From positions 1-45,858 of the forward strand of contig JAZNEM010000113.1 of assembly GCA_045588595.1 (NCBI GenBank): a stretch of DNA of 45,858 bases, given 5' to 3'. The notes beneath the pieces were generated by a model, which was not told where the DNA came from, searched no databases, and saw only the letters and a list, made by a program, of their open reading frames with translations. This document shows, in pieces, positions 4,470-35,146 of the stretch. The DNA is from Eubacteriales bacterium (GTDB taxonomy: Bacteria; Bacillota; Clostridia; Oscillospirales; CAG-272). Position numbers and translations under genes: made by a program. The first letter of the stretch is position 1. Every line of letters starts with the position of its first letter.

Positions 4470-4812
4470 CCCTTTCCTTTTTTCATTCGCTGTGTGCGCA
4501 AGAGTGAGGGGCAATTTGTATAAAAAAAGCTCCTTTACGCAACAGCAATAACTTTTGCATAAAAGAGACGAAGACAGTTATTCCCCGCGGTACCACTCTG
4601 CATTGATGATCCTTGATCACCCACTCATGTCCTGTCAGACAACAAGACTTCTCTTTAACGGGAGATGCCGTCCGAGTCTAATCACGATTTTTTGAAAAAC
4701 GCTTTCGGTCGGAAACTCGGGGAGGAGACATATTTTACTCTGCATACTGCCTTACACCAACCGACAGCTCTCTGCGATGCTTCTGCAAAAATGATTTCCC
4801 TTCACAGTCGAT
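4470..4812 (-). promoter_or_regulatory. T-box riboswitch leader controlling leuA-ilvB-ilvN-ilvC
   Basis: Minus-strand RNA carries AGAGAG (rc of 4768-4773) and GGUUGGUGUAAG (rc of 4751-4762), the Stem I AG-bulge/distal-loop signatures. It also carries the T-box core CAGAGUGGUACCGCGGGG (rc of 4583-4600) and a downstream terminator. Confidence 0.85.
4522..4567 (-). terminator. intrinsic terminator of the T-box leader
   Basis: Minus-strand RNA CUCUUUUAUGC-(16 nt loop)-GCGUAAAGGAG forms an 11-bp stem (two G-U pairs) followed by CUUUUUUU. Its 5' arm lies directly 3' of the T-box core, so it can compete with an antiterminator. Confidence 0.75.
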
Positions 4813-4818
4813 ATGAGT

Positions 4819-7684: not shown

Positions 7685-7865
7685 ATGAGCATAGTATCCT
7701 TGTTTGTATTTTTATTCAGCATCGTAATTACATAAATTTATTATATAATCAATATCACATGCTTGTCAAGAGCTTTAGCGCAATTTCTGACAAAATTCGA
7801 TAAAAATACAAACAAATTTACTTTTTGCAAACGTTTATTTATATAACTTCTTTATTTGCTTTCTT

Positions 7866-7906
7866 TTGCTTGTTTTTTTCGCGAAAGAAAAGTAAATGCG
7901 TCCCCA
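7866..7906 (+). repeat. partial copy (degenerate H4 hairpin plus terminus) of the mosaic repeat family
   Basis: TTGCTTGTTTTTTTCGCGAAAGAAAAGTAAATGCGTCCCC aligns with the right end of the 17857-18129 copy (TTGCTTACTTTTTCTTTCGCGAAAGAAAAAGTAAGCGCGTCCCC). Ends 6 nt from the stop codon of the Toprim gene. Confidence 0.65.
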
Positions 7907-7911
7907 AAGTA

Positions 7912-8499
7912 TTATCTTCCGACGAGTCGGCAATATTCTTCGTAGGAAATAAGAATTTTAAGGGCGGCGAGCAAAGCATTTGCGGTCATAGCAGGCGGGA
8001 GACCAAGCTTTTTAGCAAGTTCGTCACGGCGCATGGCACTATCGGGGCGTCCTGATAGCCCGTCGGCATAGAAATCGGCTTTCGATAGAGGATTTTGTGC
8101 GGCGGCAAAGACTCGTTCGGAGTCTTCGAAGGGAGAGAGCAGGTCGAAAAGAAGCTCTCGCTCCATTCCTTCAACACCGAGCGTTCCCTCGGCCGAGGGG
8201 GTATCCTTTCGCTTTTCAGTGCCTTTTATTCTCGGAATATAGAGCTGTATCAATCTGTCGTTTGGAATTGCCGAAGTAAGATGCGAGCGAATGACCTTTC
8301 CCGCGCCGTCGCTATCGGTAAGAACGATTATCGGGGTACGTGCGGAGAGCTGACGGATAAGCGAGAGCTTTTCGCTTTTTTTAAATATCCCAAAGCCGTC
8401 GGTCGTGAGGATATTCGCGTTGCAGACCGATAAAAGACGCAGGCGGTCGTATTTGCCTTCAACTATTATCGGATAAGGTATATTGAGCTTTTCTTTCAT
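7912..8499 (-). CDS. Toprim-domain protein, RNase M5 (RnmV)-like
   Basis: 195 aa. IIVEGKYD...IIVLTDSDGAGKVIR matches the Toprim E...DxD arrangement and the size of RNase M5-type proteins. Confidence 0.6.
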   Translation of the reverse strand: MKEKLNIPYPIIVEGKYDRLRLLSVCNANILTTDGFGIFKKSEKLSLIRQLSARTPIIVLTDSDGAGKVIRSHLTSAIPNDRLIQLYIPRIKGTEKRKDTPSAEGTLGVEGMERELLFDLLSPFEDSERVFAAAQNPLSKADFYADGLSGRPDSAMRRDELAKKLGLPPAMTANALLAALKILISYEEYCRLVGR

Positions 8500-14205: not shown

Positions 14206-14679
14206 ATGTCTGTAGAAAAGGTAAGAGAATATTTGTCCGAATACGGACTTGCGGAACGTATCCGCGAATTTGACGTATCGAGCGCGACAGTAGAGCTTGC
14301 CGCCGAGGCTCTCGGCACGGAGGGGGCAAGAATAGCCAAAAGCATTACCTTGCACGACGGTGCGGACGGTTGTATAATGATAATCTGCGCGGGTGACTAT
14401 AAAATAGATAATTCGCTTTTTAAAGGGAGATTCGGCTTCAAGGCGCGTATGCTTACGCCCGATGAGGCATTGGCTCTCACGGGTCACGCGGTAGGCGGTA
14501 TATGTCCGTTTGCTCTTCCTGACGGAGTGCAGGTCTATCTTGATGAATCGCTCCGACGCTTTGATATAATTTATCCCGCGGCAGGTTCTTCGGCAAGCGC
14601 TGTTGAACTCAGTTGCGATGAGCTTTTAAAGGCTTCGCGAGCTATCTCGTGGGAGACTCTTTGCAAACCGAGGAGTTAA
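14206..14679 (+). CDS. YbaK/ProX-type aminoacyl-tRNA editing (deacylase) domain protein
   Basis: 157 aa. GHAVGGICPFAL motif and a size typical of free-standing YbaK/EbsC proteins. Confidence 0.75.
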   Translation: MSVEKVREYLSEYGLAERIREFDVSSATVELAAEALGTEGARIAKSITLHDGADGCIMIICAGDYKIDNSLFKGRFGFKARMLTPDEALALTGHAVGGICPFALPDGVQVYLDESLRRFDIIYPAAGSSASAVELSCDELLKASRAISWETLCKPRS

Positions 14680-14769
14680 GGACGCGCGTTACTTTTTCTT
14701 TTGAAAAAGAAAAAGTAACCAAAAAGAAAACATAACCCAAAAGAAAACATAACCGAAAAGAAAACTATT
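14680..14769 (-). repeat. partial mosaic-repeat copy (terminus plus H4, inverted orientation) followed by three tandem 17-nt repeats
   Basis: GGACGCG starts immediately after the ybaK-like TAA. Hairpin GTTACTTTTTCTTT-GAA-AAAGAAAAAGTAAC lies at 14688-14719. It is followed by CCAAAAAGAAAACATAA / CCCAAAAGAAAACATAA / CCGAAAAGAAAACTATT (14719-14769). Confidence 0.75.
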
Positions 14770-16863: not shown

Positions 16864-17589
16864 ATGTTTAATAAAAATGAAAAGATAAGAGAAAGACTCG
16901 AGAAAATAGAAGAAGCGGTAAATGACGATACTGCCATGCACGAGCTTACAGAACGTTATCGTCCGCTTATTTTGAGAACGGCTTGTTCCGTATGCGGACG
17001 CTTTATAACCGTGCATGACGACGAGTACGCCATAGCTCTTGAAGCCTTTTGCGACGCTATGCGGCGGTATAACGGTCAAGCATCTCCCGAGACTTACGCA
17101 AAGGTCGTTATACGCAATCGCTTGATAGACCATATGAGAGCAAGCAAGCCATCGACCGTTTCGCTTGATGCCGAGATGGAGTCGGGATTTGAGCCGTCGG
17201 ACGAGATTGACTCGGAGAGACAGGCTCTCGCGGAGGCTACTCGCGCCGAGATAGCGGAGCTATCGGATATTTTGCAGGAATACGGTATATCCTTTACCGA
17301 ACTTCCGTCGGTGTCACCGAAACATGAAAAGACTCGTCACGAGTGCGGAAGAGTCGTTCGTTTTCTGTGTGATTCTCCAAAGCTATGCGCGGAAATGAGA
17401 AGAAAAAAGGCTCTTCCTATAAAAGAGATATGTCAAAATTGCATTATACCCCGAAAAACAGTTGAGAGACATCGTAAATATATTGTGACGGCTACGGAAG
17501 TGTGTATTGGTTGTTTTCCGATAATTTCGGAGTATTTAAAGAAATACCTTCCGCCTAAATCGGTATTATGTGCCGATGCGCCAATATAA
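16864..17589 (+). CDS. sigI: RNA polymerase sigma-I family factor
   Basis: 241 aa. Sigma-70 region-2-like N-terminus (ELTERYRPLILRTACSV...) and the C-terminal SigI-type domain. Immediately followed by a gene with an RsgI N-terminal domain. GGAGG SD. Confidence 0.7.
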   Translation: MFNKNEKIRERLEKIEEAVNDDTAMHELTERYRPLILRTACSVCGRFITVHDDEYAIALEAFCDAMRRYNGQASPETYAKVVIRNRLIDHMRASKPSTVSLDAEMESGFEPSDEIDSERQALAEATRAEIAELSDILQEYGISFTELPSVSPKHEKTRHECGRVVRFLCDSPKLCAEMRRKKALPIKEICQNCIIPRKTVERHRKYIVTATEVCIGCFPIISEYLKKYLPPKSVLCADAPI

Positions 17590-17610
17590 AGACGAAAGGA
17601 GACATTTGAC

Positions 17611-17856
17611 ATGATGAATGCAGTTGTTTTGGAGCTTCGTGACGATAAGCGTGCCGTGGCTCTTGATGCAAACGGCAGATTTAGACTTATCGCTAACGAT
17701 AATTATCGAATCGGTCAGACTGTTCAGGTCAGAAAAATATCTCGTTTCGTGCGCCCCAGCGATTATAAAAAAATGACCCTCGCCCTCCTCTGTGTTGGCG
17801 CGGTCACTATTTCCGCAAGCATAGCCGCTATTATCCGTTCCTCTGACAAACATTAA
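17611..17856 (+). CDS. rsgI: minimal anti-sigma-I factor (RsgI N-terminal domain plus one TM helix, no sensor domain)
   Basis: 81 aa. MMNAVVLELRDDKRAVALDANGRFRLIANDNYRIGQTVQV matches the RsgI_N pattern, followed by TM segment MTLALLCVGAVTISASIAAII and only 8 further residues. GGAG SD. Confidence 0.65.
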   Translation: MMNAVVLELRDDKRAVALDANGRFRLIANDNYRIGQTVQVRKISRFVRPSDYKKMTLALLCVGAVTISASIAAIIRSSDKH

Positions 17857-18129
17857 GGGGACGCGTTCGAGAACAATCTTTTCAAGAAAGTTCTCGAGCT
17901 CTCAAAGAACTTCACCCAAAAAGTCTTATACGTAGCCGATTTGTTTTGCTTTAATTTAATGAAACGGACAGTCGAGGTGATATGCACCCCAAAAGGGTCT
18001 AACTTTTGGGGTGCATATCACTTCGACTGTCCTAAAATTATTAAGTCCCTCAAACGGTTATTTATAATAACCACTGTTTTGCTTACTTTTTCTTTCGCGA
18101 AAGAAAAAGTAAGCGCGTCCCCCGCGTCC
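17857..18129 (+). repeat. full-length mosaic palindromic repeat element (copy A)
   Basis: Fills the gap between the rsgI TAA (17854-17856) and the TTA stop (18130-18132) of the convergent gene. Termini GGGGACGCG / CGCGTCCCC(CGCGTCC). Hairpins at 17867-17897, 17966-18032 (about 30-bp stem), 18056-18072 and 18081-18114 (17-bp perfect palindrome). Colinear with 33083-33381. Confidence 0.85.
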
Positions 18130-18537
18130 TTATCTACCTACACTAAATCGATTTTTACAGCGAGGGCAGATAACATTATGCTTGCCTTTAGCTTTAGGGA
18201 GTCGCAGGACTGCTTTACAATGGGGGCATTTTCTGTAAATGTGAGTTTTTCTGTCGCGGAACTTATTACGGCGGAGCTTAAAGAATCCGCAGAATTTCTC
18301 ATTTTCGCGTCTGCGTTTTTGTATGTTTCTTGATAGCATACGGAAGAAAATAATGTATATAAGCGTAACAGAGAAAGCAAAATAGAAAAAGCTGAACCAA
18401 ACGGAGTCTACAAACAGAGAAAGCACACTATAAACGACAACCGCGACGGTGTAGGTGATAATTAGCGTTTTATTTAGCGTATCCGAGCCGTATCGACCAT
18501 ACATAAAGCGATACAATTTATTTTTTAATTTACCCAT
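18130..18537 (-). CDS. zinc-ribbon membrane protein
   Basis: 135 aa. Two hydrophobic helices, then a basic linker and CPHC...(17 aa)...CPRC zinc-ribbon motif. Lies 52 nt downstream of the ABC gene on the same strand. Confidence 0.65.
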   Translation of the reverse strand: MGKLKNKLYRFMYGRYGSDTLNKTLIITYTVAVVVYSVLSLFVDSVWFSFFYFAFSVTLIYIIFFRMLSRNIQKRRRENEKFCGFFKLRRNKFRDRKTHIYRKCPHCKAVLRLPKAKGKHNVICPRCKNRFSVGR

Positions 18538-18589
18538 TTATACCTTTTTCTATGGGGCTATCGTATTTTGCACGACAGCCCCAATTTTT

Positions 18590-21500
18590 TTATTCTGTTC
18601 TGAGAGCTTCAACGGGGTCTTTCCTTGATGCCTTCTTTGAAGGAATGAGACCGGCGATGATCGTGAGTCCCATGCTTATGAGAACGAGGATCAAAGCCGC
18701 AACAGGAGGAAGGACAGCGTTGATATTTTCAAATCCCGTAAGTGCTTGGATTATAGCGTTGACGGGGAGGCAGAGCACAACGGTGGTGAGTATTCCCAGA
18801 ATACCCGCCGCAAGACCGATAATAAAGGTCTCTGCATTGAATACACGGGATATATCCTTCTTCGACGCACCGATAGCGCGGAGGATACCTATCTCCTTTG
18901 TACGCTCAAGCACCGAGATGTTTGTGATGATTCCTATCATTATAGATGAAACTACGAGGGAGATAGAAACGAATGCTATAAGAACGTAAGAGATAACGTC
19001 GATAATGATAGAAACAGAGGACATCATGATGCCGATAAGATCGGTGTATTCGATCTTGTCATCATCGGCAGCGGTGTCATTGTAGTCGGAAATGAACTGT
19101 TCTATATTTTCTTTGGAAGCGAAGTCCTTGGCATAGAAGTTTATCGATGCGGGAGAAGCTTCCTGTGCATCACCAAGCTTTTTGAGAGTGGATTTAAGTG
19201 TTGCATCGGTTTCGGGTGCCATCATGGTCAAAAGTTCGATTATTTCCTCTGTGGTCATATCGATTTCGGAAGCCTTGTCGTTAGCCTCCTCCTGACCTGC
19301 CAAGGATCTTATCCACATTACACAGAAATCTTTGGAAAGCGAGATGTTTCCGAGCGTAGCTTCAAGTGTGGGATAAAATTCGGATACGTTTGTCGAATAC
19401 TGTGCAAGAATACCTATCAGTGTACCGTATTGCTGCTGATCCTGAGCTATACTGGGCAGACAGAATTCAAAATCCTCTCTTGAATCTATTGCGAGAACCC
19501 CACCCTGTGAAAGCGTCTGATGAACTATCATTTTTGCGGTCATAGGGATCGGAACACCGGGGATCGTTATTGGGGTATCGCCTAATTTGTCATACATCGC
19601 AAGCGCAAGGGCTTTTTTATCTGTGTCGTTGAGCAGTGTAGCGTAGGTGATAAACTTTTCGAGCTTCTGGCTCATCTGCTTGCCTTCTTCAAGCTCATTG
19701 CTTGCTGTCTTAAAATCTTCTATAAGCATACCGCCCATCATGGACGATATTTGACTCATGGTATTTGCATCGAACGCCGCAAACAGCTCGTGTACGGTAT
19801 CAACGGTGTATTTCTTGTTTTCAAGCTCGTGGGGAAGACCCGTTGTGATGTTTATAGTGGGATTGGCCTTTTGCTGCTTGAGTATCTCGCTGTTGGCGTT
19901 CATTTCGAGTACAGTGTCCGTAAGCATTTTTGAATAAGCAATGGGGCTTGCTATGGATGTTGCCGTAGCGTCAACGCGAGGACGGATAATTCCCGATATC
20001 TTAAGCTTCATACCGTGTTTGGTTATAAATCCTTCTTCATCGTAATTAGCTTCCTCGCGTACGTCTTTCCAGACGTGGTACTTGTTTCCGTCATCACCCG
20101 TATACTGTTCTTGGTCGTAATCTTTTACAAAGAAATCAGAGGTGTTTACAAGATATAACTCGGAATTGAGGAAGTAATCGAAATCGAACGGATCGATAGG
20201 TTCGTCCTTGTATTCCTTATCGGTCATAAGGGTCTTCATTATATCCTCGAGCTCGCCTTGGTCGAGTATACCGAGCATATAAAGGGTCATACGGCTTATT
20301 TGGTTGTTCTTGTTTACAACGAGTACTATCTCATTTGCTTCCTTCGGCCAAGCACCCGCAACGACGTCGTACTGCTGGTCAAGAAGCTCCTGATTGTCTA
20401 TCATTTCGGTCATGACGTCCATCATTCCCGAAGTGCCTGCAAGCTCGCTGAGTCCTGCGAAGCTGTCGCCCATGTTGTCAAGCATCGTACCAAGACCGAG
20501 CTTTGTTACTCTGTTGTAATCCTTGCCGTCCTTGTCCTTGTCGGGAACGATATTATAGACCTGAAGATTTAAGTCATAGGTGTATTGAATATCATTTACG
20601 TAGGGCTTTAATTTATCAAAATTCGTATCCAGATGAGTTTTGAATTTTTCAAGATTGTTAGTGGTCGTAGAGAGCATGGCATTTACCATTTTGCCCATCG
20701 AATCGTCAACGTAGATCTTGTTAGGGTCTCTTTCCGCGTTTGCGTCTTCTTCGACCTCTGTCATGGCGCTCATCATTGCGTTAAGGTCGCTCGTTTCTTT
20801 CATGATAGAGAGCGGATAGGTCGAAAGCGTATCCTCCTGAACTTGATCGATAAAGAGCTGTATGCCGTTTGAAAGTGCGAGAATAAGCGCGATACCGATA
20901 ATACCTATGCTTCCCGCAAAGGAGGTCATTATAGTTCTTCCTTTTTTGGTCAGCAGGTTTTTGAAGGATAGAGAGACAGCGGTCTTAAAGGACATCGATG
21001 ACTTTTTAGCCTCAGCCTTTTTCGCTTTTTTGTCTTTCTTGTTTTGAATTATCGCTTGCGTATCCTTTTTTATGAGTTGTTCGTATTCCTCGTCGAGAAC
21101 AGGGTCGGAGTCACCTATTACCAAGCCGTCCTGAAGCTTTACTATTCGCGTGGAATACTGCTCGGCAAGCTCGGGGTTATGTGTTACCATGATGACGAGA
21201 CGGTCCTCTGCGACCTCTTTGAGAAGGTCCATTATCTGCACGCTCGTCTGCGTATCAAGTGCTCCCGTAGGCTCGTCGGCAAGAAGTATATCGGGGTCGT
21301 TAACGAGAGCTCTCGCGATAGCGACTCTCTGCATCTGACCGCCCGACATCTGATTTGGCTTTTTGTGAAGCTGGTCGCCAAGACCTACCTTTTCAAGTGC
21401 CTTTATCGCCTTTGCGCGTCTTTCTGCTTTTGAAACGCCCGAGAGAGTGAGCGCAAGCTCAACGTTTGAAAGAACGGTCTGGTGAGGAATCAAGTTGTAG

Positions 21501-21772
21501 CTTTGGAAAACGAAACCTATTGAGTGGTTTCTGTAGGTGTCCCAATCTCTGTCGCGGAAAAGCTTGGTAGATCTTCCGTTGATGATCAGATCTCCCTCGG
21601 AATATCTGTCAAGACCTCCTATGATGTTGAGCATCGTGGTCTTTCCGCAACCCGACGCGCCGAGGATAGACACGAACTCATTTTCCCTGAAGCGCAGGTC
21701 GACTCCGCCAAGAGCCTTGACTTCCATGTCGCCCGTGACATAGGTTTTTACGATGTTTTTTAATTCGAGCAT
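18590..21772 (-). CDS. fused ABC transporter ATP-binding protein / FtsX-family permease (MacB-like) with a very large extracytoplasmic domain
   Basis: Walker A GASGCGKTT, signature MSGGQMQRVAIARAL, Walker B ILLADEPTGALD. One TM near residue 290, roughly 600 residues of non-hydrophobic sequence, then three C-terminal FtsX-type TMs. The track start (21787) is a TTG. The ATG at 21770-21772 (MLELKNIV) follows a GAAAGGG SD. Confidence 0.85.
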   Translation of the reverse strand: MLELKNIVKTYVTGDMEVKALGGVDLRFRENEFVSILGASGCGKTTMLNIIGGLDRYSEGDLIINGRSTKLFRDRDWDTYRNHSIGFVFQSYNLIPHQTVLSNVELALTLSGVSKAERRAKAIKALEKVGLGDQLHKKPNQMSGGQMQRVAIARALVNDPDILLADEPTGALDTQTSVQIMDLLKEVAEDRLVIMVTHNPELAEQYSTRIVKLQDGLVIGDSDPVLDEEYEQLIKKDTQAIIQNKKDKKAKKAEAKKSSMSFKTAVSLSFKNLLTKKGRTIMTSFAGSIGIIGIALILALSNGIQLFIDQVQEDTLSTYPLSIMKETSDLNAMMSAMTEVEEDANAERDPNKIYVDDSMGKMVNAMLSTTTNNLEKFKTHLDTNFDKLKPYVNDIQYTYDLNLQVYNIVPDKDKDGKDYNRVTKLGLGTMLDNMGDSFAGLSELAGTSGMMDVMTEMIDNQELLDQQYDVVAGAWPKEANEIVLVVNKNNQISRMTLYMLGILDQGELEDIMKTLMTDKEYKDEPIDPFDFDYFLNSELYLVNTSDFFVKDYDQEQYTGDDGNKYHVWKDVREEANYDEEGFITKHGMKLKISGIIRPRVDATATSIASPIAYSKMLTDTVLEMNANSEILKQQKANPTINITTGLPHELENKKYTVDTVHELFAAFDANTMSQISSMMGGMLIEDFKTASNELEEGKQMSQKLEKFITYATLLNDTDKKALALAMYDKLGDTPITIPGVPIPMTAKMIVHQTLSQGGVLAIDSREDFEFCLPSIAQDQQQYGTLIGILAQYSTNVSEFYPTLEATLGNISLSKDFCVMWIRSLAGQEEANDKASEIDMTTEEIIELLTMMAPETDATLKSTLKKLGDAQEASPASINFYAKDFASKENIEQFISDYNDTAADDDKIEYTDLIGIMMSSVSIIIDVISYVLIAFVSISLVVSSIMIGIITNISVLERTKEIGILRAIGASKKDISRVFNAETFIIGLAAGILGILTTVVLCLPVNAIIQALTGFENINAVLPPVAALILVLISMGLTIIAGLIPSKKASRKDPVEALRTE

Positions 21773-21991
21773 TGTTATCCCTTTCAAAAAAAAATCAAAA
21801 ATTATGCAGTTTATATTATAAATTATAACATCGTTTTTTTAACATAAAATATATATAAAAGCAAAATTGTGTGAATTTTTGTGACGGCTTTATGAAAATA
21901 TTCACTTTTGGAAGAAAATACACGTAATAAAAAAACTTGACGTGTAAAAAATAATCTTGAACGGTACAAACGTTCAAGGAGGAAAGACACA

Positions 21992-22207
21992 ATGATCATG
22001 GATAGGATAGCCCTTATAATCACTATCATAGGCGCATTGAACTGGGGAAGCATAGGTCTTTTCAAGTTCGATATCGTCGCATGGTTGTGCGGTGGGCAGA
22101 CGGCACTTGTAAGCCGTATCATATACACGGTGGTCGCTTTGGCGGGCATTTGGTGCGTCTCTCTTCTTTTTCGTGCCCGTGAGCGTTTTGAGGCGCTTGA
22201 CGAGTAA
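21992..22207 (+). CDS. DUF378 family small membrane protein
   Basis: 71 aa. IIGALNWGSIGLFKFDIVAWL is the characteristic DUF378 motif. AAGGAGG SD. Confidence 0.8.
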   Translation: MIMDRIALIITIIGALNWGSIGLFKFDIVAWLCGGQTALVSRIIYTVVALAGIWCVSLLFRARERFEALDE

Positions 22208-22500
22208 GAAAAAGAGAAGATGCGCGGAGTAGCGCCTCGGCAACCCGAAGGCGTAGGACTCCTAATCGTTATTTTTGAGAACAAGAAGGGGCTGTCACAT
22301 TTGGCAAGACCGAAAAAAGTCCAAGAGATAAATAAAAAACTCATTATACGCTCAAAAAACGTAAATGAGAGAATAACATGTTGAATTTCTTCGAAATCCT
22401 TCATTTTTATGGACTTTTTTCTACCGTTGTTTTCGGGACTCGACGTACCTTTGTACGCATCACGCCCCGAAGAACGACGCTTCTTGCTCAAATCTGACTA
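22208..22500. other. hairpin-rich non-coding segment (no convincing gene)
   Basis: Hairpin at 22226-22262 (GGAGT..GCGCCTCGG-CAAC-CCGAAGGCG..ACTCC). An 11-bp long-range pairing joins GAAAAAAGTCC (22312-22322) and GGACTTTTTTC (22411-22421), enclosing CTCATTATACG/CGTAAATGAG (22340-22369). Further hairpin TTCGGG...CCCGAA at about 22432-22472. Both large ORFs drawn here are implausible. Confidence 0.5.
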
Positions 22501-22511
22501 TCCCCTAAATT

Positions 22512-22544
22512 AGGGCTGTCTCAAATCCAATTTGAGACAGCCCT
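22512..22544. terminator. bidirectional-looking stem-loop between DUF378 region and rsmA
   Basis: AGGGCTGTCTCAAA-TCCAA-TTTGAGACAGCCCT forms a 14-bp perfect stem. T-rich (TCGCTTTTATTTTT) on the plus strand, weak U-tract on the minus strand. Lies 7 nt from the rsmA stop. Confidence 0.6.
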
Positions 22545-22550
22545 TCGCTT

Positions 22551-23432
22551 TTATTTTTGAAGCTTTTGTATCTTTTCGTATAAAACGTCGGACAAAGCGG
22601 TAAATTCCTCCACCGAGAGCTTTTCTCCGCGTATATTCGGGTCGTGTCCGCAGTCTGTGATCGCAGAGGTTATCTCCTCCTTTGAGAGTTCGGAGAAAAC
22701 AGCGGAGAGGGCGTTCGGCAGAGTTTTTCTTCTTTGCTCAAAAGCGGCACGTACCGTTCTGAAAAAGGTCTTTTCGTCGGAGGGGTTGCAAGGCTTTTCC
22801 TTGAATAGCTTTATGCGTACGACCGAGGAATCGACCTTGGGCGCGGGAATGAAGTTGCCCGCAGATACCTTAAATAGCTTTTCGGGAGAGCCGTAGTAAT
22901 TGAGCACTGCCGTTATAGCTCCGCAGTCCTTTCCGCCGGGGGCAGAGCAGAGACGGTCGGCTACCTCGGATTGAATCATTATTGTGATATAGTCAAAGGG
23001 AAGTCCCGATTCAAGAAGCATCATGAGTATCGGCGTGGTGATATAATAGGGTAGATTTGCGCAGACCGATACCTTGCCCTTTTCAAAATAGGGCGAAAGG
23101 AGAGTCTTGAGGTCGGCTTTCATAACGTCCTCGTTGATAACAGTGACGTTGTTATATTCACCGAGAGTGTATTTGAGCACAGGAATAAGACCGCGGTCTA
23201 TCTCAACGGCAACGACATGGCGGTATCGTTGCGCAAGCTCGCTCGTCAAAGAGCCGATACCCGGACCTATCTCAAGGATAGTGCTGTTTTCGTCGTCACA
23301 GCAATTATCGGCTATATCCTCGACTACCATGTTGTTTGTCAGAAAGTTCTGTCCGAATTCCTTGCGGAAATTTATGCCGAACATAGCCATCGTTTGTTTT
23401 ATGTTGCGAATATCGCAAAGATTCATAGGCAT
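22551..23432 (-). CDS. rsmA: 16S rRNA (adenine1518/1519-N6)-dimethyltransferase
   Basis: FGQNFL, SAM motif EIGPGIGSLT and NLPYYITTPI. The track ORF starts at 23549, but the conserved region begins at MPMNLCDI (ATG at 23430-23432, AAAGGAA SD). Confidence 0.9.
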   Translation of the reverse strand: MPMNLCDIRNIKQTMAMFGINFRKEFGQNFLTNNMVVEDIADNCCDDENSTILEIGPGIGSLTSELAQRYRHVVAVEIDRGLIPVLKYTLGEYNNVTVINEDVMKADLKTLLSPYFEKGKVSVCANLPYYITTPILMMLLESGLPFDYITIMIQSEVADRLCSAPGGKDCGAITAVLNYYGSPEKLFKVSAGNFIPAPKVDSSVVRIKLFKEKPCNPSDEKTFFRTVRAAFEQRRKTLPNALSAVFSELSKEEITSAITDCGHDPNIRGEKLSVEEFTALSDVLYEKIQKLQK

Positions 23433-23542
23433 GTTTATAATTCCTTTTTTATACAGAGTTATATCAATACGATTAATTGTAACATAAAAAGCGTTTAAAA
23501 TCAATAGATAAAGAGGATTTTTGTGTTTTTTCGGAAAAAGTA

Positions 23543-23571
23543 TTGACAAAACCGAGATTTTAGATTATAAT
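23543..23571 (+). promoter_or_regulatory. consensus sigma-A promoter for tRNA-Thr
   Basis: TTGACA (23543-23548), a 17-nt spacer, then TATAAT (23566-23571), 11 nt before the mature tRNA 5' end. Confidence 0.7.
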
Positions 23572-23582
23572 ATCAATGTTGC

Positions 23583-23658
23583 GCTGGTGTAGCACAGTCG
23601 GTAGTGCAGCTGATTCGTAATCAGCAGGTCGTGTGTTCGAGTCACATCACCAGCTCCA
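23583..23658 (+). tRNA. tRNA-Thr (anticodon CGT)
   Basis: 76 nt cloverleaf folded by hand. Acceptor GCTGGTG/CACCAGC, D arm GCAC-AGTCGGTA-GTGC, anticodon arm GCTGA-TTCGTAA-TCAGC, variable AGGTC, T arm GTGTG-TTCGAGT-CACAT, discriminator T, encoded CCA. Confidence 0.9.
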
Positions 23659-23659
23659 G

Positions 23660-23690
23660 AAAAAGCACTTGCGAAAGCAAGTGCTTTTTC
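23660..23690 (+). terminator. intrinsic terminator after tRNA-Thr
   Basis: AAAAAGCACTTGC-GAAA-GCAAGTGCTTTTT forms a 13-bp stem with a T-run. Confidence 0.8.
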
Positions 23691-27132: not shown

Positions 27133-28403
27133 TAAACATACTTAAATATGGAGAAGTATCTAACAGTGAGATATTTTCACGCGCCGTGCCTACTGTAAAC
27201 GTAGAAGCAACAGTTGCGGATATTATCGCAAACGTTCGAAAGAACGGTGATGAAGCATTGCTTTATTATTGCAAAAAGTTTGACGGTGCGGAGCTTTCCA
27301 CGCTCGTGGTAAGCGAGGAGGAGATAAACGAGGCTTTTTCATCGGTTGAGCCTAAATTTATTGAGATACTTGAAAAGGCGGCAAAAAATATCAGAGCTTT
27401 TCATGAAAAGCAGGTACGCAACAGCTTTATTATAAACAATGAAAACGGAATCGTCATAGGACAAAAGGTTATCCCCGTAGACAAGGCTGGACTTTATGTT
27501 CCGGGCGGTACGGCTGCATATCCGTCAACTGTTCTTATGGACGCTATCCCTGCAAAAATTGCCGGTTGTCGTGAGGTCGTAATGGTAACTCCTCCTAACA
27601 AAGAGGGAAAGGTGAATCCCGTAATTCTGGCGGCGGCAAAGATAGCTGGTATCGACCGCATCTTCAAGGTTGGCGGAGCACAGGCGGTAGCCGCTCTTGC
27701 GTACGGTACGGAAAGCGTACCGAAGGTCGATAAGATAGTAGGACCTGGTAACGCTTTCGTTGCCGAGGCTAAAAAACAGGTGTTTGGTGTTGTTTCTATC
27801 GATATGATAGCAGGACCGAGCGAAATACTTATAGTTGCCGACGGTAAAAGCAACCCTCGTCACGTGGCGGCAGACCTTCTTTCACAGGCAGAGCACGATA
27901 GAATGGCTAGTGCCGTCCTCGTTACCGATTCGTACGAGCTTGCGACAGACGTAAGCGCGGAGCTTGAGAGACAGATACCTTTGCTTGAACGTGCCGAGAT
28001 AGCAAGAGAATCCATAGATAAAAACGGAAAGATAATAGTTGCCGATACACTTTATGCGGCTATCGAGATCGCAAACGAGATCGCTCTTGAGCACCTTGAA
28101 CTTTGCGTTGATAATCCTTTCGATTATCTTGATGCTATCCGTCACGCAGGCTCGATATTTATGGGCAGAAATTGCCCCGAAGCACTTGGAGATTATTTCG
28201 CAGGTCCTAACCACACGCTTCCCACAAGCGGAACGGCAAAATTCTCAAGCCCTCTTTCAGTTGATGACTTCGTTAAGAAAACGCAGTATACTTATTATAC
28301 AAAAGACGCCCTTGAAAAAGTCGCGCGCGACGTTGCTTTCTTTGCTGAAAAGGAAGGTCTTACCGCCCACGCCAAGAGCGCGGTAGTCAGATTAGAGGAT
28401 TGA
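27129..28403 (+). CDS. hisD: histidinol dehydrogenase
   Basis: 424 aa. [19 protein letters not shown] and [11 protein letters not shown] motifs. ATGA overlap with hisG. Confidence 0.93.
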
Positions 28404-28405
28404 GA

Positions 28406-28636
28406 GGACGAGTTCGAGAACTTTCTTAAAAGAAAGTTCTCGAACTCTCAAAGAATTTTTTGCAAGTTGTTTTTTGTGTTTGTTTCGCTGTAATTGTTTG
28501 TAACGGACAGTCGAGGACGCCTGTCCCTACATGGTTAAGGAAAAAATTCGTTAAATTATCTCTCGCCGTAGGCGACGGTGTAACAACACAATTTTAATTT
28601 TTACATTGTAGGGACAGGCGTCCTCGACTGTCCGTT
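28406..28636 (+). repeat. mosaic palindromic repeat element, partial copy B, inside the his operon
   Basis: GGACGAG terminus 2 nt after the hisD TGA. H1 is a 16-bp perfect palindrome GTTCGAGAACTTTCTT-AA-AAGAAAGTTCTCGAAC (28412-28445). Linker CTCAAAGAATTTTTT. H2 has 29-bp perfect arms ACGGACAGTCGAGGACGCCTGTCCCTACA / TGTAGGGACAGGCGTCCTCGACTGTCCGT (28503-28635) with a 75-nt loop. Confidence 0.85.
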
Positions 28637-28663
28637 TACGAAAGAAAAAAGGAACTATAAACC

Positions 28664-29728
28664 ATGAGCAGATTTTTTAGCAACAAATACGCATCTTTAG
28701 TGCCGTACACACCTGGTGAGCAACCAAAAGAGATGCAATACATAAAGCTCAATACGAACGAGTCACCGTTTCCGCCGTCGAAAAAGGCGATGGAAAAAGC
28801 TGCAGAGGCGGCAGAGAGGCTTCAGCTTTATTCCGATCCCGAGTGCCGTGCGCTTAACGCGGCTATGGCGAATCGTTTCGGTGTGAACACGGACGAGATA
28901 CTTATGACAAACGGCTCGGACGAGATACTCAATTTTGCCTTTATGGCGTTCTGTGATGAGAAAACTCCCGCGGCATTCGCTGATATAACCTACGGCTTTT
29001 ACAGTGTATTTGCCGAGATAAATCGTTTGCCTTACCGTATAATTCCGCTCAACAAGGATTTTACCATTAACGTCGAGGATTATATGGGGATAGGCTGTAC
29101 CGTGTTTATCGCGAATCCGAATGCTCCGACGGGTATTGCGCTTCCCGTTTCGGAAATAGAAAAAATAGTCAAGAGCAACCCCGATAATATCGTTGTAATT
29201 GATGAAGCGTACGTTGATTTCGGAGCAGAGAGTTGTGTTCCGCTTATAAAGAAGTACGACAATCTTCTCGTTACGCAGACTTTTTCAAAATCGCGTTCGA
29301 TGGCAGGCGCGCGCCTTGGCTTCGGCATAGGAAATCGCGAAATCATTGCCGACCTCAATACCATAAAATATTCGACAAATCCCTACAACATAAACTCAAT
29401 GACTATGGCGGCAGGTATTGGTGCTATAAGCGATGATGATTATAACATGAATAACTGCAAGACTATCGTTGAAAACAGAGAATACACGGTAAAAGAGCTT
29501 AAAAAATTAGGCTTTACAATGACAGATTCTTCGACGAATTTCATATTTGCGCAGAGCGACAGGATAGAGGGCGGCGAGCTTTATCGCAAGCTTAAAGAGA
29601 GAGGAATACTCGTACGCCACTTTGACAAGGCGGCAATAAGCAATTACAACCGCATTACGATAGGAACGCGAGAGCAGATGCAGACCTTTATTAATACGGT
29701 AGTAAGTATTCTGGAGGAAAAACAATGA
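28664..29728 (+). CDS. hisC: histidinol-phosphate aminotransferase
   Basis: 354 aa. NPNAPTG and the PLP-lysine motif TFSKSRSMAGARLG. Confidence 0.92.
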   Translation: MSRFFSNKYASLVPYTPGEQPKEMQYIKLNTNESPFPPSKKAMEKAAEAAERLQLYSDPECRALNAAMANRFGVNTDEILMTNGSDEILNFAFMAFCDEKTPAAFADITYGFYSVFAEINRLPYRIIPLNKDFTINVEDYMGIGCTVFIANPNAPTGIALPVSEIEKIVKSNPDNIVVIDEAYVDFGAESCVPLIKKYDNLLVTQTFSKSRSMAGARLGFGIGNREIIADLNTIKYSTNPYNINSMTMAAGIGAISDDDYNMNNCKTIVENREYTVKELKKLGFTMTDSSTNFIFAQSDRIEGGELYRKLKERGILVRHFDKAAISNYNRITIGTREQMQTFINTVVSILEEKQ

Positions 29729-30312
29729 GACAGGCTGAAATAAAAAGAAATACTAATGAAACTAATATAGAGCTTACGCTTAATATTGACGGTGTTGGAA
29801 AGAGCACTGTAGCAACGGGCTGTGGATTCCTTGACCATATGCTTGTTCTTTTTGCGCGTCACGGCAGATTTGACCTTGACGTTAGTTGCAAGGGAGACGT
29901 TGAAGTCGATTATCATCACACCGCAGAGGACGTGGGGATCTGTCTTGGTAAAGCCTTTGCCGAGGCTCTCGGAGAAAAGAGAGGCATCGTTCGATATGGC
30001 TCTATGACACTTCCGATGGACGAAACGCTCGTAATCGCGGCGGCAGACCTCTCGGGTAGAGCATATCTCGGATACGCACTTGATATTCCCACAGAAAAGG
30101 TTGGGGATTTCGACACCGAGCTTGTAAAGGAATTCTTCTTTGCTTTTGTAAGAACTGCGGAATGTACGCTCCATATAAGACAACTTGCGGGTGAAAATTC
30201 GCACCACATAATAGAGGGAGCGTTCAAGGCGTTCGGAAGAGCGATGAAGCAAGCTGTAGCTATTGACGAAGCTTTTGCAGACGAGATCCCCTCGACTAAG
30301 GGGGCTCTTTGA
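29725..30312 (+). CDS. hisB: imidazoleglycerol-phosphate dehydratase
   Basis: 195 aa. RNTNETNIEL, DYHHTAEDVGI and HHIIEGAFKAFG motifs. Confidence 0.93.
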   Translation: MRQAEIKRNTNETNIELTLNIDGVGKSTVATGCGFLDHMLVLFARHGRFDLDVSCKGDVEVDYHHTAEDVGICLGKAFAEALGEKRGIVRYGSMTLPMDETLVIAAADLSGRAYLGYALDIPTEKVGDFDTELVKEFFFAFVRTAECTLHIRQLAGENSHHIIEGAFKAFGRAMKQAVAIDEAFADEIPSTKGAL

Positions 30313-30929
30313 TGATTGCGATAGTTGATTACGGAGTCGGAAATCTTTTTTCGCTCAAAAGCTCGCTTATATGCGTAGGTGCTGACACGGTAGTTACCGC
30401 GGACAAGCAGGTCTTGCGAGATGCGGATAAAATACTTCTCCCGGGTGTCGGCGCGTTTGGAGACGCGGCAAGAAAGCTTCGCGACTGCGGACTTGCGGAG
30501 GTAGTCATTGACGAAGCAAAAAAAGGGAAAAGAATACTCGGTATCTGTCTTGGTATGCAGATGCTTCTTGAAAAAAGCTTTGAGTATGGAGAGCATGATG
30601 GACTCGGACTTATAAAGGGCGAGATAAGACCTATTTCGGACGTTATACCAAAAGGTCTTAAAATTCCGCACATTGGTTGGAACGCTCTTAATTTCGGAGA
30701 GAAAAAGAACGAGCTTTTTAAATACGTAAATGAGGGAGAGCACGTTTATTTCGTACATTCCTATTACGGTGCGAAGTGTGATGAGGCGGTTATAGCTACG
30801 GCAGATTACGGAGCAGCTCTTACAGCGGCAGTCGCTATGGACAACGTATACGGCTGTCAGTTTCACCCCGAAAAGAGTGGCAGAGTAGGGCTTTCTATCC
30901 TACGCGCGTTTAACGAAATGAAAGATTGA
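30309..30929 (+). CDS. hisH: imidazole glycerol phosphate synthase, glutamine amidotransferase subunit
   Basis: 206 aa. Catalytic GICLGMQ cysteine and QFHPEKS. Confidence 0.93.
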   Translation: MMIAIVDYGVGNLFSLKSSLICVGADTVVTADKQVLRDADKILLPGVGAFGDAARKLRDCGLAEVVIDEAKKGKRILGICLGMQMLLEKSFEYGEHDGLGLIKGEIRPISDVIPKGLKIPHIGWNALNFGEKKNELFKYVNEGEHVYFVHSYYGAKCDEAVIATADYGAALTAAVAMDNVYGCQFHPEKSGRVGLSILRAFNEMKD

Positions 30930-30949
30930 AATAAAAGAGGCATTTACAC

Positions 30950-31663
30950 ATGAATATATTTCCTGCAATAGACCTTTTCGGAGGAAAGGCGGTACGTCTT
31001 TACAAAGGCGATTACGCACAGATGACGGTCTATAATGACCGTCCGCTTGAAGTTGCAAAGGATTTTGAGCGCGAGGGCGCAAAATTTTTACACCTCGTTG
31101 ACCTTGAGGGCGCAAAAAGCGGACTTACTCCGAATCTCGAAACGATAAAAGAGATAGTTGAAAATACCGACCTGTTTTGTGAGGTCGGTGGTGGTATAAG
31201 AAGTATGGAGACTGTCAAGACCTATCTTGATGCGGGTGTTGACCGCGTGATACTCGGTACAGCGGCGGTTACCGACCCCGATTTTGTCGCACGCGCGACA
31301 TCCGAATACGGAGAGCGTATAGCTGTCGGTGCTGACATCAAGGACGGAAAGGTTGCTATCAAGGGCTGGACCGAGACGAGTGACCTTACAGCAGAAGAAT
31401 TTTTTGCGAAAATGCAGAGTCTCCACGTGCGTACTGTAATTTGCACCGACGTATCAAAGGACGGTGCGATGATGGGTACAAATCACGAGCTTTATCGCGA
31501 GCTGTCCGAAAAATTTGACATGCAGATAGTCGCTTCGGGTGGTGTATCAACTATTGAGGACGTGAAGAAACTTGCTGAGCGAGGACTTTACGGTGCGATA
31601 ATAGGTAAGGCGTATTATACGGGAGCGATATCGCTTTGCGAGGCTATCGAGGTGGCAAAATGA
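30950..31663 (+). CDS. hisA: 1-(5-phosphoribosyl)-5-[(5-phosphoribosylamino)methylideneamino]imidazole-4-carboxamide isomerase
   Basis: 237 aa. IFPAIDLFGGKAVRLYKGDY and the (beta/alpha)8 HisA pattern. Confidence 0.92.
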   Translation: MNIFPAIDLFGGKAVRLYKGDYAQMTVYNDRPLEVAKDFEREGAKFLHLVDLEGAKSGLTPNLETIKEIVENTDLFCEVGGGIRSMETVKTYLDAGVDRVILGTAAVTDPDFVARATSEYGERIAVGADIKDGKVAIKGWTETSDLTAEEFFAKMQSLHVRTVICTDVSKDGAMMGTNHELYRELSEKFDMQIVASGGVSTIEDVKKLAERGLYGAIIGKAYYTGAISLCEAIEVAK

Positions 31664-32418
31664 TAACTAAACGTATTATTCCTTGTCTTGACGTTAAAAA
31701 CGGACGAGTTGTCAAGGGTGTGAATTTTCTTGGGCTCAACGACGTGTCCTCGCCTGTCGAACTTGCGAAATATTATAGCGACAACGGTGCGGACGAGCTT
31801 GTTTTTTACGACATCACAGCATCTGCCGAGGGGCGTGCTCTCTTTACCGACATTCTTTGCGAGGTGGCAAGTCAGATATTTATTCCGCTCACAGTAGGCG
31901 GAGGTATAAATACGCTTGACGATTTTGACAGAGTTCTCAAATGCGGTGCGGACAAGGTTAGTGTTAATTCCGGAGCTATCCGTAATCCTGAGCTTGTACG
32001 CGAGGCGGCAAAACGTTACGGAGATCAATGTGTCGTGCTTTCTGCCGACGTAAAACGTGTTGACGGTGTTTTTCGCGTGTTTGCCAAGGGCGGTCGCGAG
32101 AACACGGGCATGGAAGCTATTTCTTGGATAAAGCGTTGCGTCGATATGGGTGCGGGCGAGGTTGTTCTCAATTCAATTGACACTGATGGAGTAAAGCAGG
32201 GCTTTGATATAGAAATGCTTGATGCGGTCTGCAACGCTGTATCCGTTCCCGTTATCGCTTCGGGAGGGGCTGGTTGTATCGACCACTTTACAAAGCTTTT
32301 TAAAGCTTTGCCCAAGGTGGACGCGGGACTTGCCGCATCTATCTTCCATTTCCACGAGGTCGATATCGGAGACCTCAAACGTGAGCTTTCAGCTAACGGA
32401 ATTCCAATGAGAATATAA
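31660..32418 (+). CDS. hisF: imidazole glycerol phosphate synthase, cyclase subunit
   Basis: [20 protein letters not shown]... The start is the ATG at 31660 (ATGA overlap with the hisA stop), not the track start at 31636. Confidence 0.93.
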
Positions 32419-32431
32419 AAGGAGACTTATC

Positions 32432-33381: not shown

Positions 33382-33382
33382 T

Positions 33383-33889: not shown

Positions 33890-33916
33890 TTTGTTATTCC
33901 TTTCAATGTATAAAAT

Positions 33917-34309: not shown

Positions 34310-34330
34310 AGTAAAATAAAGCCTTTCTTG

Positions 34331-35104: not shown

Positions 35105-35146
35105 GGGTTAATTTCTTTCTATAAGATTGTTACATTTGATTTTTTA

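Follow-up and report, generated by a model that had tools for sequence, protein, structure and literature searches.

Mosaic Extragenic Elements with a Probable REPIN Core in an Uncultured Clostridial Genome

Introduction

What are the hairpin-rich repeats that recur between the genes of this clostridial contig, how did they spread, and why do most of them begin directly after a stop codon? A preliminary description of the window, the 45,858-nt stretch of DNA analysed here, had counted at least six copies, recognised no named family, and left the choice among REP-type mosaics, MITEs, and structured RNAs. REP/REPIN–RAYT systems are reportedly known from Proteobacteria (E. coli and Pseudomonas) through the work of Nunvar in 2010, Bertels and Rainey in 2011, and Ton-Hoang in 2012. 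They are discussed as long-lived, vertically inherited replicators within bacterial genomes and, to our knowledge, have been characterised almost only in Proteobacteria. Our analysis indicates that the six loci probably constitute one lineage-specific family of mosaic extragenic elements with a REPIN core, analogous to the BIMEs of E. coli.

Results and Discussion

The family was delimited using nhmmer profiles built only from copies in the sister MAG SIG709 and in L035 and then run on the window. The left-half profile matches copies B (E 1e-22), A (1e-20), and C (5e-12). The right-half profile affords strong matches to B (1e-19), A (4e-14), and positions 7804-7905 (9e-13), and weaker matches to 36951-37047 (7e-8) and, on the minus strand, 14669-14731 (3e-4). 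Because the profiles match nothing else in the window beyond these three left and five right halves, the loci number six in total, exactly those listed in the preliminary description; the modular, multi-copy, non-autonomous repeat family that it proposed is genuine. All copies in the window are extragenic, and a transposase or integrase domain is found in none of its approximately 40 ORFs, upholding the earlier statement that no mobilising enzyme is encoded there. Copies A and B are indeed colinear in the modules first assigned to them, and their single strands fold far better than shuffled sequences (z = -11.9 as DNA and -14.1 as RNA). Hairpins between convergent genes are common in intergenic DNA, and the similarity among loci might be ascribed to chance or to convergence of ordinary terminator hairpins. 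That explanation is refuted by profile E-values as low as 1e-22, by an identical 29-mer in dozens of contigs, and by the 14-mer ACGGACAGTCGAGG, which occurs seven times in the window when up to three mismatches are allowed, a count that 0 of 100 shuffles reached. The conservation of the linkers, which are not palindromic, also counts against it, and we consider it vanishingly improbable.

The conserved frame consists of T units, H1, a linker, the REPIN, H3, an occasional extra hairpin (Hx), H4, and inverted T units. The T unit is an 8-10-nt motif, RRGGAYGCG, found in one to six tandem copies and inverted between the two ends of an element; what had been described as a fixed terminal inverted repeat is instead a variable tandem array of one to four such units. 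H1 occurs in two versions with compensatory differences in their arms, GACCCTTTC/GAAAGGGTC versus GAGAACTTTC/GAAAGTTCTC. The core is best seen in copy C, which has the following features.

28404-28663, plus strand: copy C, a 260-nt insertion in the his operon (hisD stop TGA at 28401-28403; hisC start at 28664)
28404-28411, plus strand: T unit GAGGACGA
28412-28445, plus strand: H1
28446-28502, plus strand: linker
28503-28635, plus strand: intact REPIN, 29-bp arms and a 75-nt spacer
28503-28531, minus strand: left REP unit, reading TGTAG-GGACAG-GCGTCCTCGA-CTGTCC-GT
28532-28606: 75-nt spacer with a small central hairpin, TCGCCGTAGGCGA
28607-28635, plus strand: right REP unit, its GTAG head facing the spacer
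28636-28663, plus strand: tail carrying the hisC ribosome-binding site

The intact H2 module is a doublet of inverted, GTAG-tagged REP hairpins, i.e., a REPIN. Each 29-nt REP unit comprises a GTAG tag, a 6-bp stem, and a 10-nt loop. The 29-mer folds into its 6-bp stem at -8.7 kcal/mol, which 1 of 200 shuffles equals, and copy C as a whole folds at -48 kcal/mol (z = -12.5). In copy C and every intact SIG709 unit, the tag occupies the 5' foot of the hairpin (TGTAG-GGACAG...), and a second REP type, found in L133, likewise begins with GTAG. Inverted REP pairs with 67-77-nt spacers are present in copy C and in 13 SIG709 copies; the spacer lies in one orientation in seven copies and is flipped in about seven. 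The 29-mer is identical in many MAGs, and literature searches with the REP 17-mers and two peptides found no match. The preliminary description had treated 28406-28636 as a partial copy with H1, linker, and H2. All three are present, but this H2 matches those of A and B only in its outer 14 bp.

Copies A and B are full mosaics in which the core is altered.

17857-18129, plus strand: copy A, full mosaic, flanked by the stops of convergent genes (TAA 17854-17856 and TTA 18130-18132)
17857-17865, plus strand: T unit GGGGACGCG
17865-17899, plus strand: H1
17900-17963, plus strand: linker
17964-18034, plus strand: H2, a REPIN derivative
18056-18072, plus strand: H3
18081-18114, plus strand: H4
18114-18129, plus strand: two inverted T units
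33083-33381, plus strand: copy B, full mosaic, between the hisIE stop (33080-33082) and the stop of a convergent cyclophilin gene (33383-33385)
33083-33106, plus strand: three T units
33106-33137, plus strand: H1
33138-33195, plus strand: linker
33196-33268, plus strand: H2, a REPIN derivative as in copy A
33297-33313, plus strand: H3
33336-33369, plus strand: H4
33375-33381, plus strand: inverted T unit

The outer 14 bp of H2 in copy A (ACGGACAGTCGAGG / CTTCGACTGTCCT) represent the tail halves of a pair of inverted REP units, and the position of the GTAG tags is occupied instead by the palindrome TGATATGCACCCCAAAAG-GGTCTAA-CTTTTGGGGTGCATATCA. In both A and B, only the outer 14 nt of each unit are left, the GTAG heads and inner stems having been replaced; these copies are REPIN derivatives and not REPINs, and only one of the three H2 modules in the window keeps its GTAG heads. 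The SIG709 orthologue of copy A (L022, unit at 854) contains an intact REPIN, and the two orthologues differ in H1 version and in the right half. The replacement in A and B starts at the same base, after GTCGAGG in the REP loop, at which an element of about 78 nt is inserted in L007, L027, L013, and L021. A and B may thus be REPINs that were disabled when their interior was replaced at this hot spot. Insertion sequences of the IS1397 type target REPs (PMC2817692), and the present family likewise has an insertion hot spot in the REP loop; the inserts described here, however, are tiny and non-coding, and no cognate IS was seen. In BLAST searches of plasmids and phages, the inner palindrome of A and B is the sole part with matches: a site on a Monoglobus plasmid (E 6e-9 to 9e-8), phage contigs from human faeces (best E 1e-5), and, weakly, Lactococcus and Enterococcus. 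A metagenome scan gave 0 matches to the A/B-type H2 junction, and the HisIE sequence has no exact-match record.

Three further loci carry right-end modules.

14680-14765, minus strand: right-end cassette alone, inverted; T unit and H4, then a AAAAGAAAACATAACC-repeat tail
14680-14686, minus strand: T unit GGACGCG of this cassette, directly after the stop (14677-14679) of a tRNA-editing-domain gene
14688-14719, minus strand: H4 of this cassette
7804-7906, plus strand: right half without the REPIN; post-REP linker, degenerate H3 and H4, T unit
7899-7906, plus strand: T unit GCGTCCCC of this right half; the stop of the minus-strand gene 7912-8499 lies 6 nt further
36951-37036, plus strand: right-half tail and H4 (37007-37036), without a T unit
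37037-37039, minus strand: stop of a PTS EIIC/EIIB gene, abutted by the H4 of the preceding copy

The inverted terminus with H4 originally placed at 14680-14769 is borne out as a lone right-end cassette. The copy given as 7866-7906 does contain H4 and a terminus, but it starts at about 7804 and represents a whole right half in which H4 is degenerate. For the copy given as 36880-37036, the match to the family covers 36951-37047, whereas the "linker-like segment" at 36880-36950 is unsupported. The ends of the elements are positioned with respect to genes. Of 29 T-bearing ends, 23 have an ORF of 90 aa or longer whose stop precedes the hairpin by 8-35 nt, with T units filling the gap, and in most copies the T units begin directly after the stop codon of the adjacent gene. 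The T+H1 and T+H4 end cassettes, which also occur alone, always face a gene 3' end, their first T unit lying at the stop codon or a few bases from it.

Copies are scattered through the sister genome, and more distant relatives lack the family. In SIG709, which shares about 87% nucleotide identity with the window, 14 pattern matches were found on 12 contigs, all intergenic, along with further partial units; this is a minimum, since only elements with a linker fit the search pattern. The repeats are therefore not restricted to this region, a possibility raised in the preliminary description, since at least 12 SIG709 contigs carry them, and nearly all SIG709 copies have an H2 made of inverted 29-nt units. 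No module was detected in 487 kb from 80 related contigs. Of 25 related contigs, 16 (about 16 species) have a gap of -1 to 8 nt between hisD and hisC, as against 260 nt in both the window and SIG709; relative to many related species, copy C represents an insertion. An empty site for copy B was not found, the cyclophilin gene not adjoining hisIE in the 80 relatives. Target-site duplications are absent from the junctions of A, B, C, and the SIG709 copies, including the empty-site comparison for copy C, and a candidate "TA" duplication that fits copy A fails for copy B. Orthologous identity is 86-87% for the halves of B and 98.5% for C, as compared to 59.5% at 4-fold degenerate sites of the flanking genes. 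The value for copy C is weak as a sign of purifying selection because the copy lies inside a tract of 95-100% identity (28364-28783) that reaches into flanking coding sequence, and it may reflect recent recombination between lineages and not selection.

A candidate for the mobilising enzyme is provided by other Clostridia MAGs, in which the identical 29-mer occurs beside and inside a 176-aa RAYT-type gene. By tblastn, 176-179-aa ORFs containing the 29-mer were found in L034, L015, L017, L041, L038, L018, and L031, and the RAYT gene and the same REP unit occur together in MAGs L034, L015, L017, L038, L041, L043, and L051. The ORF matches NCBIfam NF047646 (REP-associated tyrosine transposase) with E 5e-19 and 68.6 bits, under the curated cut-off of 80, and PDB 4ER8 (E. 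coli TnpA-REP) with E 6e-10. Its HUH (PNHIHLL) and tyrosine (YIYENP) motifs are legible, a Pfam search with it returned no match, and some homologues are labelled "REP element-mobilizing transposase RayT" by JGI. By these similarities, the clostridial ORF is identified as a Y1 HUH transposase of the TnpA-REP type. RAYT is a single gene in ordinary chromosomal contexts. When seven RAYT genes are compared, the two REP stretches show no variation at any codon position, whereas the remainder varies at wobble sites, and some genomes carry the REP pair solely inside the RAYT reading frame. In SIG707, RAYT and an H4/6xT cassette lie within one 8-kb locus. Neither the window nor the SIG709 loci examined yielded a RAYT gene. 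All 14 SIG709 pattern matches are mosaic elements, though the pattern also catches some RAYT genes, and the lack of RAYT among these 14 is suggestive but not conclusive. A RAYT-type Y1 transposase, which the preliminary description had proposed to look for, is thus found with the exact 29-mer in other Clostridia, and the family left unrecognised there can be placed by its intact H2: this is a REPIN, and RAYT genes of related Clostridia are linked to exactly its 29-nt unit.

We propose that RAYT would mobilise the elements. The protein, encoded elsewhere in the genome now or formerly, would recognise the REP units in their single-stranded hairpin form and cleave them at the GTAG foot, which is how REPINs would spread. 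The larger frame could be copied along with the REPIN or via recombination between copies, and spacer flipping could result from recombination between the inverted arms or from re-insertion. Movement of the T, H1, H3, and H4 modules by RAYT is putative; described REP/BIME systems have no counterpart of them. Once in place, the hairpin cassettes next to stop codons may act on neighbouring mRNA 3' ends through stability, read-through attenuation, or ribosome release, as E. coli REPs do. Such action would explain both the gene-oriented placement of the cassettes and their retention at orthologous sites.

The elements might instead be MITEs, each 270-400-nt unit being an internally deleted DDE transposon with T-unit terminal inverted repeats that is moved in trans by a transposase encoded elsewhere, with the REP-like hairpin as a passenger. 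Their size and intergenic location are typical of MITEs, both ends bear T units in inverted orientation, and the non-palindromic linkers are colinear between copies at different loci, which indicates that units larger than the REPIN were copied. However, the junctions lack target-site duplications even where empty sites are known, the supposed inverted repeat is a tandem array of one to six units, and the end cassettes are found alone and in other combinations; for these reasons, the MITE among the options first offered fits poorly. The REP-type mosaic, another of those options, is the one supported. The ends are moreover oriented to genes at stop codons, no transposase lies beside any copy examined, and the core unit is demonstrably tied to RAYT genes. 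An autonomous partner sharing the element ends, whose inverted T units vary in number, was not found in the sequences examined. We regard a MITE origin as unlikely.

A host role is compatible with a RAYT origin. It is possible, although we hold this only tentatively, that the elements are 3'-UTR regulatory cassettes that stabilise, terminate, or insulate, and that they are spread and homogenised by recombination rather than transposition, the REP pair being one hairpin among several. In E. coli, REPs stabilise upstream mRNA, and REPs near stop codons reduce translation. The T+hairpin cassettes lie on the sense strand of the gene whose 3' end they face, and copy C, which supplies the hisC ribosome-binding site, sits inside an operon that requires read-through of the element. 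Orthologous sites keep their copies, which are far more conserved than the flanks, despite about 40% divergence at 4-fold sites, but this conservation is confounded by the possible recombination tract. H1 versions are swapped between orthologous copies, which points to gene conversion. Against such a role, the hairpins all lack a following U-tract, even though the genome uses canonical terminators, one of them at 22512-22544 in the window. No canonical terminator was found in the modules and no terminator-like site spans H1, H2, H3, or H4; the sole consensus match in copy B (33128-33140, minus strand) is a 5-bp stem within H1. Also unfavourable are the random orientation of the spacer and the 80 related contigs that lack the family and whose genes work regardless. 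There is no Rfam match either: at gathering thresholds, the whole window yields only a T-box and tRNA, nothing relevant to the elements, and permissive scans of A and C bring up nothing beyond weak matches to generic long hairpins (miRNA precursors). The structured-RNA option of the preliminary description accordingly finds no support in Rfam, and a spacer present in either orientation argues against a single strand-specific RNA.

The preferred reading, a mosaic family with a REPIN core, can be set against known small repeats. BOX and RUP of Streptococcus pneumoniae and the Correia elements of Neisseria are small modular repeats, namely hairpin-rich, non-autonomous intergenic elements of 100-400 bp that often lie within transcripts. 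They differ in having fixed inverted ends and, for RUP and Correia, target duplications that point to DDE transposases; we know of none with a GTAG-tagged unit linked to RAYT. With the proteobacterial REPIN–RAYT systems, the present family shares a short GTAG-tagged hairpin, inverted doublets with a short spacer, extragenic, dispersed copies retained at orthologous positions, and an HUH/tyrosine gene related to TnpA-REP that is physically tied to the same unit. It differs in its hosts (uncultured Oscillospiraceae and other Clostridia), in having a stem of just 6 bp, in the location of the REP pair within the reading frame of RAYT, in the larger conserved frame that surrounds the REPIN, and in known copy numbers, which are in the tens and not the hundreds. 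The literature consulted associates REPINs only with RAYT groups 2 and 3 and names Clostridia only for group 1 (PMC5581495), and our search of the repetitive extragenic palindrome literature for clostridial families found nothing useful. BIMEs combine REPs in alternating orientation with other conserved motifs (PMC6006769, PMC2817692). Like them, the present elements are inverted-REP mosaics with other motifs at gene 3' ends and between convergent genes. However, each element has one REP doublet, the extra motifs are long hairpins (H1, H3, and H4) and tandem 8-10-nt T units at the stop codon, and the two share no sequence relation, no similarity to E. coli PU/BIME motifs being apparent by eye. 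The relation is best described as analogy, not membership.

Conclusions

Our observations extend a REPIN system known mainly from Proteobacteria to uncultured gut Clostridia, with unusual twists, and describe a clear population of REPINs in gut or rumen Oscillospiraceae that have not been cultured. Very close lineages contrast sharply, with a burst in the clade of the window and SIG709 and none in 80 related contigs. With base-exact positioning at stop codons, an effect on translation termination or on the 3' ends of mRNAs can be tested directly. In genome annotation, the 29-mer and its relatives account for odd peptide segments that recur in Clostridia MAGs and for small ORFs there that are spurious. 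A transposase gene with its own recognition hairpins inside it also bears on how RAYTs and REPs stay matched. A more speculative reading, which we find doubtful when all of its parts are taken jointly, is that a large, mostly clostridial RAYT clade carries its own substrate, the inverted GTAG-REP pair, in-frame, where it would be translated as two loop segments ("VG..." and "...PT") that co-vary across the clade, each as the reverse complement of the other, and whose DNA sequence is frozen. One narrow Oscillospiraceae lineage would then have derived composites with ends made of tandem copies of the REP-loop motif set exactly at stop codons. If this is true, the gene-internal REP pair would serve as a master copy, keeping the repeats matched to the transposase, the same RAYT protein would bind or cleave at the T arrays, and REPINs and loop-derived arrays would have been co-opted as modules for gene 3' ends.

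Window Copies and Element Plan

The preliminary description had assigned one module order to copies A (17857-18129) and B (33083-33381), and this order holds. Their folding is much stronger than that of shuffled sequence (z-scores -11.9 and -14.1). With at most three mismatches allowed, the window contains seven occurrences of the 14-mer ACGGACAGTCGAGG, a count reached by none of 100 shuffles. Using nhmmer profiles built only from copies in other genomes, we recovered exactly the six loci that had been claimed. The left-half profile matches B, A, and copy C (28404-28663) with E-values of 1e-22 to 5e-12, and the right-half profile matches B, A, 7804-7905, 36951-37047, and 14669-14731 (minus strand) with E-values of 1e-19 to 3e-4. 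The partial copy placed at 7866-7906 is real, with limits that were too short, its start being near 7804; that placed at 36880-37036 keeps a right-half match (36951-37047), and its "linker-like" part is without support. What had been called a terminal inverted repeat is in fact a short tandem array. All window copies are intergenic, among housekeeping genes, and none of the ~40 window ORFs carries a transposase or integrase domain, in agreement with the initial reading.

Searching a single genome from each species for the linker together with the beginning of H2 gave 41 loci, 14 of which lie on 12 contigs of a single MAG, Oscillospiraceae bacterium SIG709. The remaining loci occur one each in many other Clostridia MAGs. 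The window organism and SIG709 are closely related (~87% nucleotide identity in coding regions), and the orthologous SIG709 sites hold counterparts of A, B, and C. Two SIG709 loci cover the relevant parts of the window:
L022: window 17108-23663
L003 (reversed): window 27310-35145

The full element plan was read from the SIG709 copies; solitary T+H1 or T+H4 cassettes are also present.

Element plan, in order
Part 1: "T" units RRGGAYGCG, 1-4 units with a period of 8-10 nt
Part 2: hairpin H1, in two versions whose arm differences are compensating
Part 3: linker, CAAAGAACTTC...TTTTGTTTT
Parts 4 and 5: H2, then H3
Part 6: hairpin AGGACTCACCGTAAGGTTAGTCC, optional
Parts 7 and 8: H4, then 1-3 inverted T units

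Other features of the window are as follows:
4561-4814, minus strand: T-box leader (Rfam RF00230, 99.8 bits), located upstream of genes for a LeuA-like isopropylmalate synthase (2782-4458) and for acetolactate synthase
14720-14765: 2.5 tandem copies of AAAAGAAAACATAACC downstream of the solitary H4; AAAAGAAAACATAACC is the reverse complement of GGTTATG-TTTTCTTTT, the stretch that precedes H4 in full copies
43393-44702: 1.3 kb without an ORF of at least 80 aa, with a low G+C of 0.38 and no Rfam match

H2 as a REPIN

H2 of copy C and of nearly all SIG709 copies consists of two inverted ACGGACAGTCGAGGACGCCTGTCCCTACA units with a spacer of 67-77 nt. On the opposite strand, the unit reads TGTAG-GGACAG-GCGTCCTCGA-CTGTCC-GT, with GTAG at the hairpin foot. 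Under published definitions (PMC6006769, PMC3337134, PMC3116915), a GTAG-footed hairpin has the architecture of a REP, and a REPIN is two such units, inverted, with a short spacer between them. Copy C and the SIG709 copies therefore belong to this class, and A and B do not. We consider it probable that the family as a whole is REPIN/BIME-like. Its closest kind is the REPIN-RAYT system, in which RAYT is the REP-associated transposase, and its closest architecture is the BIME, the mosaic element of E. coli. PMC5581495 ties REPINs to RAYT groups 2 and 3 of Proteobacteria and brings up Clostridia only for group 1. The REP sequence and its peptide translations were not found in the literature searched, and the family of elements has no match in Rfam.

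Where window 35105-35146 is compared with L003:1-120, SIG709 has extra sequence that includes a degenerate REP unit (ATGGACCGTCGAGGACGCCGGTCCCTACA). The window spacer is intergenic and only ~40 nt long; this is a presence/absence difference for which L003 stops short of the far junction.

RAYT Genes and Their Internal REP Pair

The 29-mer REP is identical across many unrelated MAGs, where it lies beside and inside an ORF of 176-179 aa. Several features mark this ORF as a RAYT gene. It matches NCBIfam NF047646 (REP-associated tyrosine transposase) with an E-value of 5e-19, at 68.6 bits, below the curated 80, and the structure of E. coli TnpA-REP (PDB 4ER8) with an E-value of 6e-10; a Pfam search gave no match. 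Its HUH motif is PNHIHLL and its tyrosine motif is YIYENP. The family comprises 3094 proteins at E <= 1e-10, some of them labeled "REP element-mobilizing transposase RayT" by JGI, and the two members looked up are single genes in ordinary but differing chromosomal contexts.

The RAYT reading frame holds an inverted pair of its own GTAG-tagged REP units, which appear in the protein as "VG......." and ".......PT" segments, as in the following genes, among others:
L034:5318-5857
L043:4001-4531
L051:4001-4513
L133:3192-3848

In seven RAYT genes from different MAGs, the stretches for VGTGV(L/P)DCP and NGQSRTPVPT show no change at any codon position, whereas the rest of the same genes shows wobble-site variation. 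For 44 distinct representatives of clusters at 50% identity, the two segments were compared at 22 positions; reverse-complement compatibility throughout is found in 12 cases when "VG..." and "...PT" come from one protein, as compared to 7 of 1864 cross pairs. Covariation of the two internal segments as reverse complements extends to distant members of the family. At the DNA level, a second REP type forms an exact inverted pair within a RAYT gene and has flanking copies. In some genomes, the internal pair provides the only REP copies within 4 kb. A limited literature search found no description of a self-contained REP pair in a RAYT gene.

Insertion and Lineage Restriction

A metagenome scan with HisIE yielded 80 contigs from related species (80-88% amino-acid identity). 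The hisD-hisC junction is included in 25 of these contigs, and in 16 of them the distance between the genes is -1 to 8 nt. In both the window and SIG709, the 260-nt copy C lies there, with a T unit at its start that directly follows the hisD stop codon. When this junction was compared with related contigs, no target duplication was detected at copy C. The MITE reading fails on target duplication. REP, H1, H4, and paired T units are absent from 487 kb of related contigs. Given this absence and the insertion in the window and SIG709, the family is a burst in a narrow clade comprising the window organism, SIG709, the MAG of locus L035, and, at least for H4+T, the MAG SIG707. RAYT genes with the same REP have a far wider distribution than the element family. 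One 8-kb SIG707 locus holds a RAYT gene and an H4 followed by perfect repeat units:
L041:3838-3888: six tandem CGCATCCT between H4 and the stop codon of a 490-aa ORF

As repeats, the T units act like a small array capable of expansion.

Gene-Oriented Ends

Of 29 T-bearing ends, 23 have an ORF of 90 aa or more that terminates 8-35 nt upstream of the hairpin, with T units occupying the gap; the T cassette therefore always sits at the 3' end of the neighboring gene, on that gene's sense strand. Typical junctions between stop codon and T unit are TAAGGACGCG, TGAGGGACGCG, and TAAAGGACGCG. Convergent genes have one cassette per side, whereas a gene followed by a co-directional gene has only one (copy C, 14680, 7804-7906, and 36951-37036). 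Reverse-complemented, the REP loop is similar to the T unit (GAGGACGC within TCGAGGACGC), and the second REP type, GTAG-GGGGCG-GCGTCCTCGA-CGCCCC, keeps the loop with a different stem. We read these sequences as suggesting, without proving, that one protein may recognize both T arrays and REP loops. A U-tract is absent from all element hairpins, whereas canonical terminators are used elsewhere in the genome.

Altered REPINs and Turnover

In A and B, each REP unit is reduced to its outer 14 bp, and the palindrome (A)TGATATGC(A/C)CCCCAAAAG-loop-CTTTTGGGG(T/G)GCATATCA(T) takes the place of everything between the two loop positions, both GTAG heads included. The break point lies directly after GTCGAGG, within the REP loop. 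Normal REPINs occupy the orthologous SIG709 sites. The loci relevant to this palindrome are:
Window 17978-18020 and 33210-33254
L042:3001-3047

A Monoglobus pectinilyticus plasmid has a site with 91-94% identity to the palindrome, and human-faecal phage contigs have weaker matches near their ends. With a response-regulator gene before it and TTTTT after it, the Monoglobus site looks like a terminator. The palindrome in A and B may be either a mobile mini-palindrome or a terminator, and the simplest idea for the same replacement at two loci is gene conversion between the two copies.

A noncoding element of ~78 nt, GTCT.C.CTGCGG.TCGGTCAC...CGCTTCGCTA, is inserted in the REP loop directly after GTCGAGG in different MAGs:
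L007:575-652
L027
L013, ~3510-3590
L021, ~2510-2590

Because these inserts use the A/B break base and REPs are known targets of insertion sequences (PMC2817692), the REP loop is an insertion hot spot in this family too.

Relative to the frame, the REPIN spacer lies either way round, with about 7 copies each. Orthologous A copies differ in H1 version and in the entire right half, so modules are exchanged between copies. Identity between the window and SIG709 is 87% for the left part of B, 86% for its right part, and 98.5% for C; the flanking genes are 59.5% identical at 464 four-fold degenerate sites, the orthologous copies being much more alike. The similarity around C also takes in ~40 nt of hisD and ~120 nt of hisC:
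Window 28364-28783 versus L003: 95-100% identity in a ~87% background, spanning copy C and the hisD and hisC ends

Because this tract runs into both genes, recent recombination is an alternative to selection for the conservation of C, and the tract suggests such an event between the window and SIG709 lineages.

Proposed Mechanism

By analogy with TnpA-REP and IS200/IS605 enzymes, the REP unit would be recognized as a single-stranded hairpin and cut at its GTAG foot, and REPINs would be copied in this manner. That RAYT is the actual mobilizer in this lineage is less certain because no RAYT gene was found in the window or in the SIG709 loci examined. The frame may move with the REPIN or spread through recombination, and the cassettes, once in place, would affect neighboring mRNAs.
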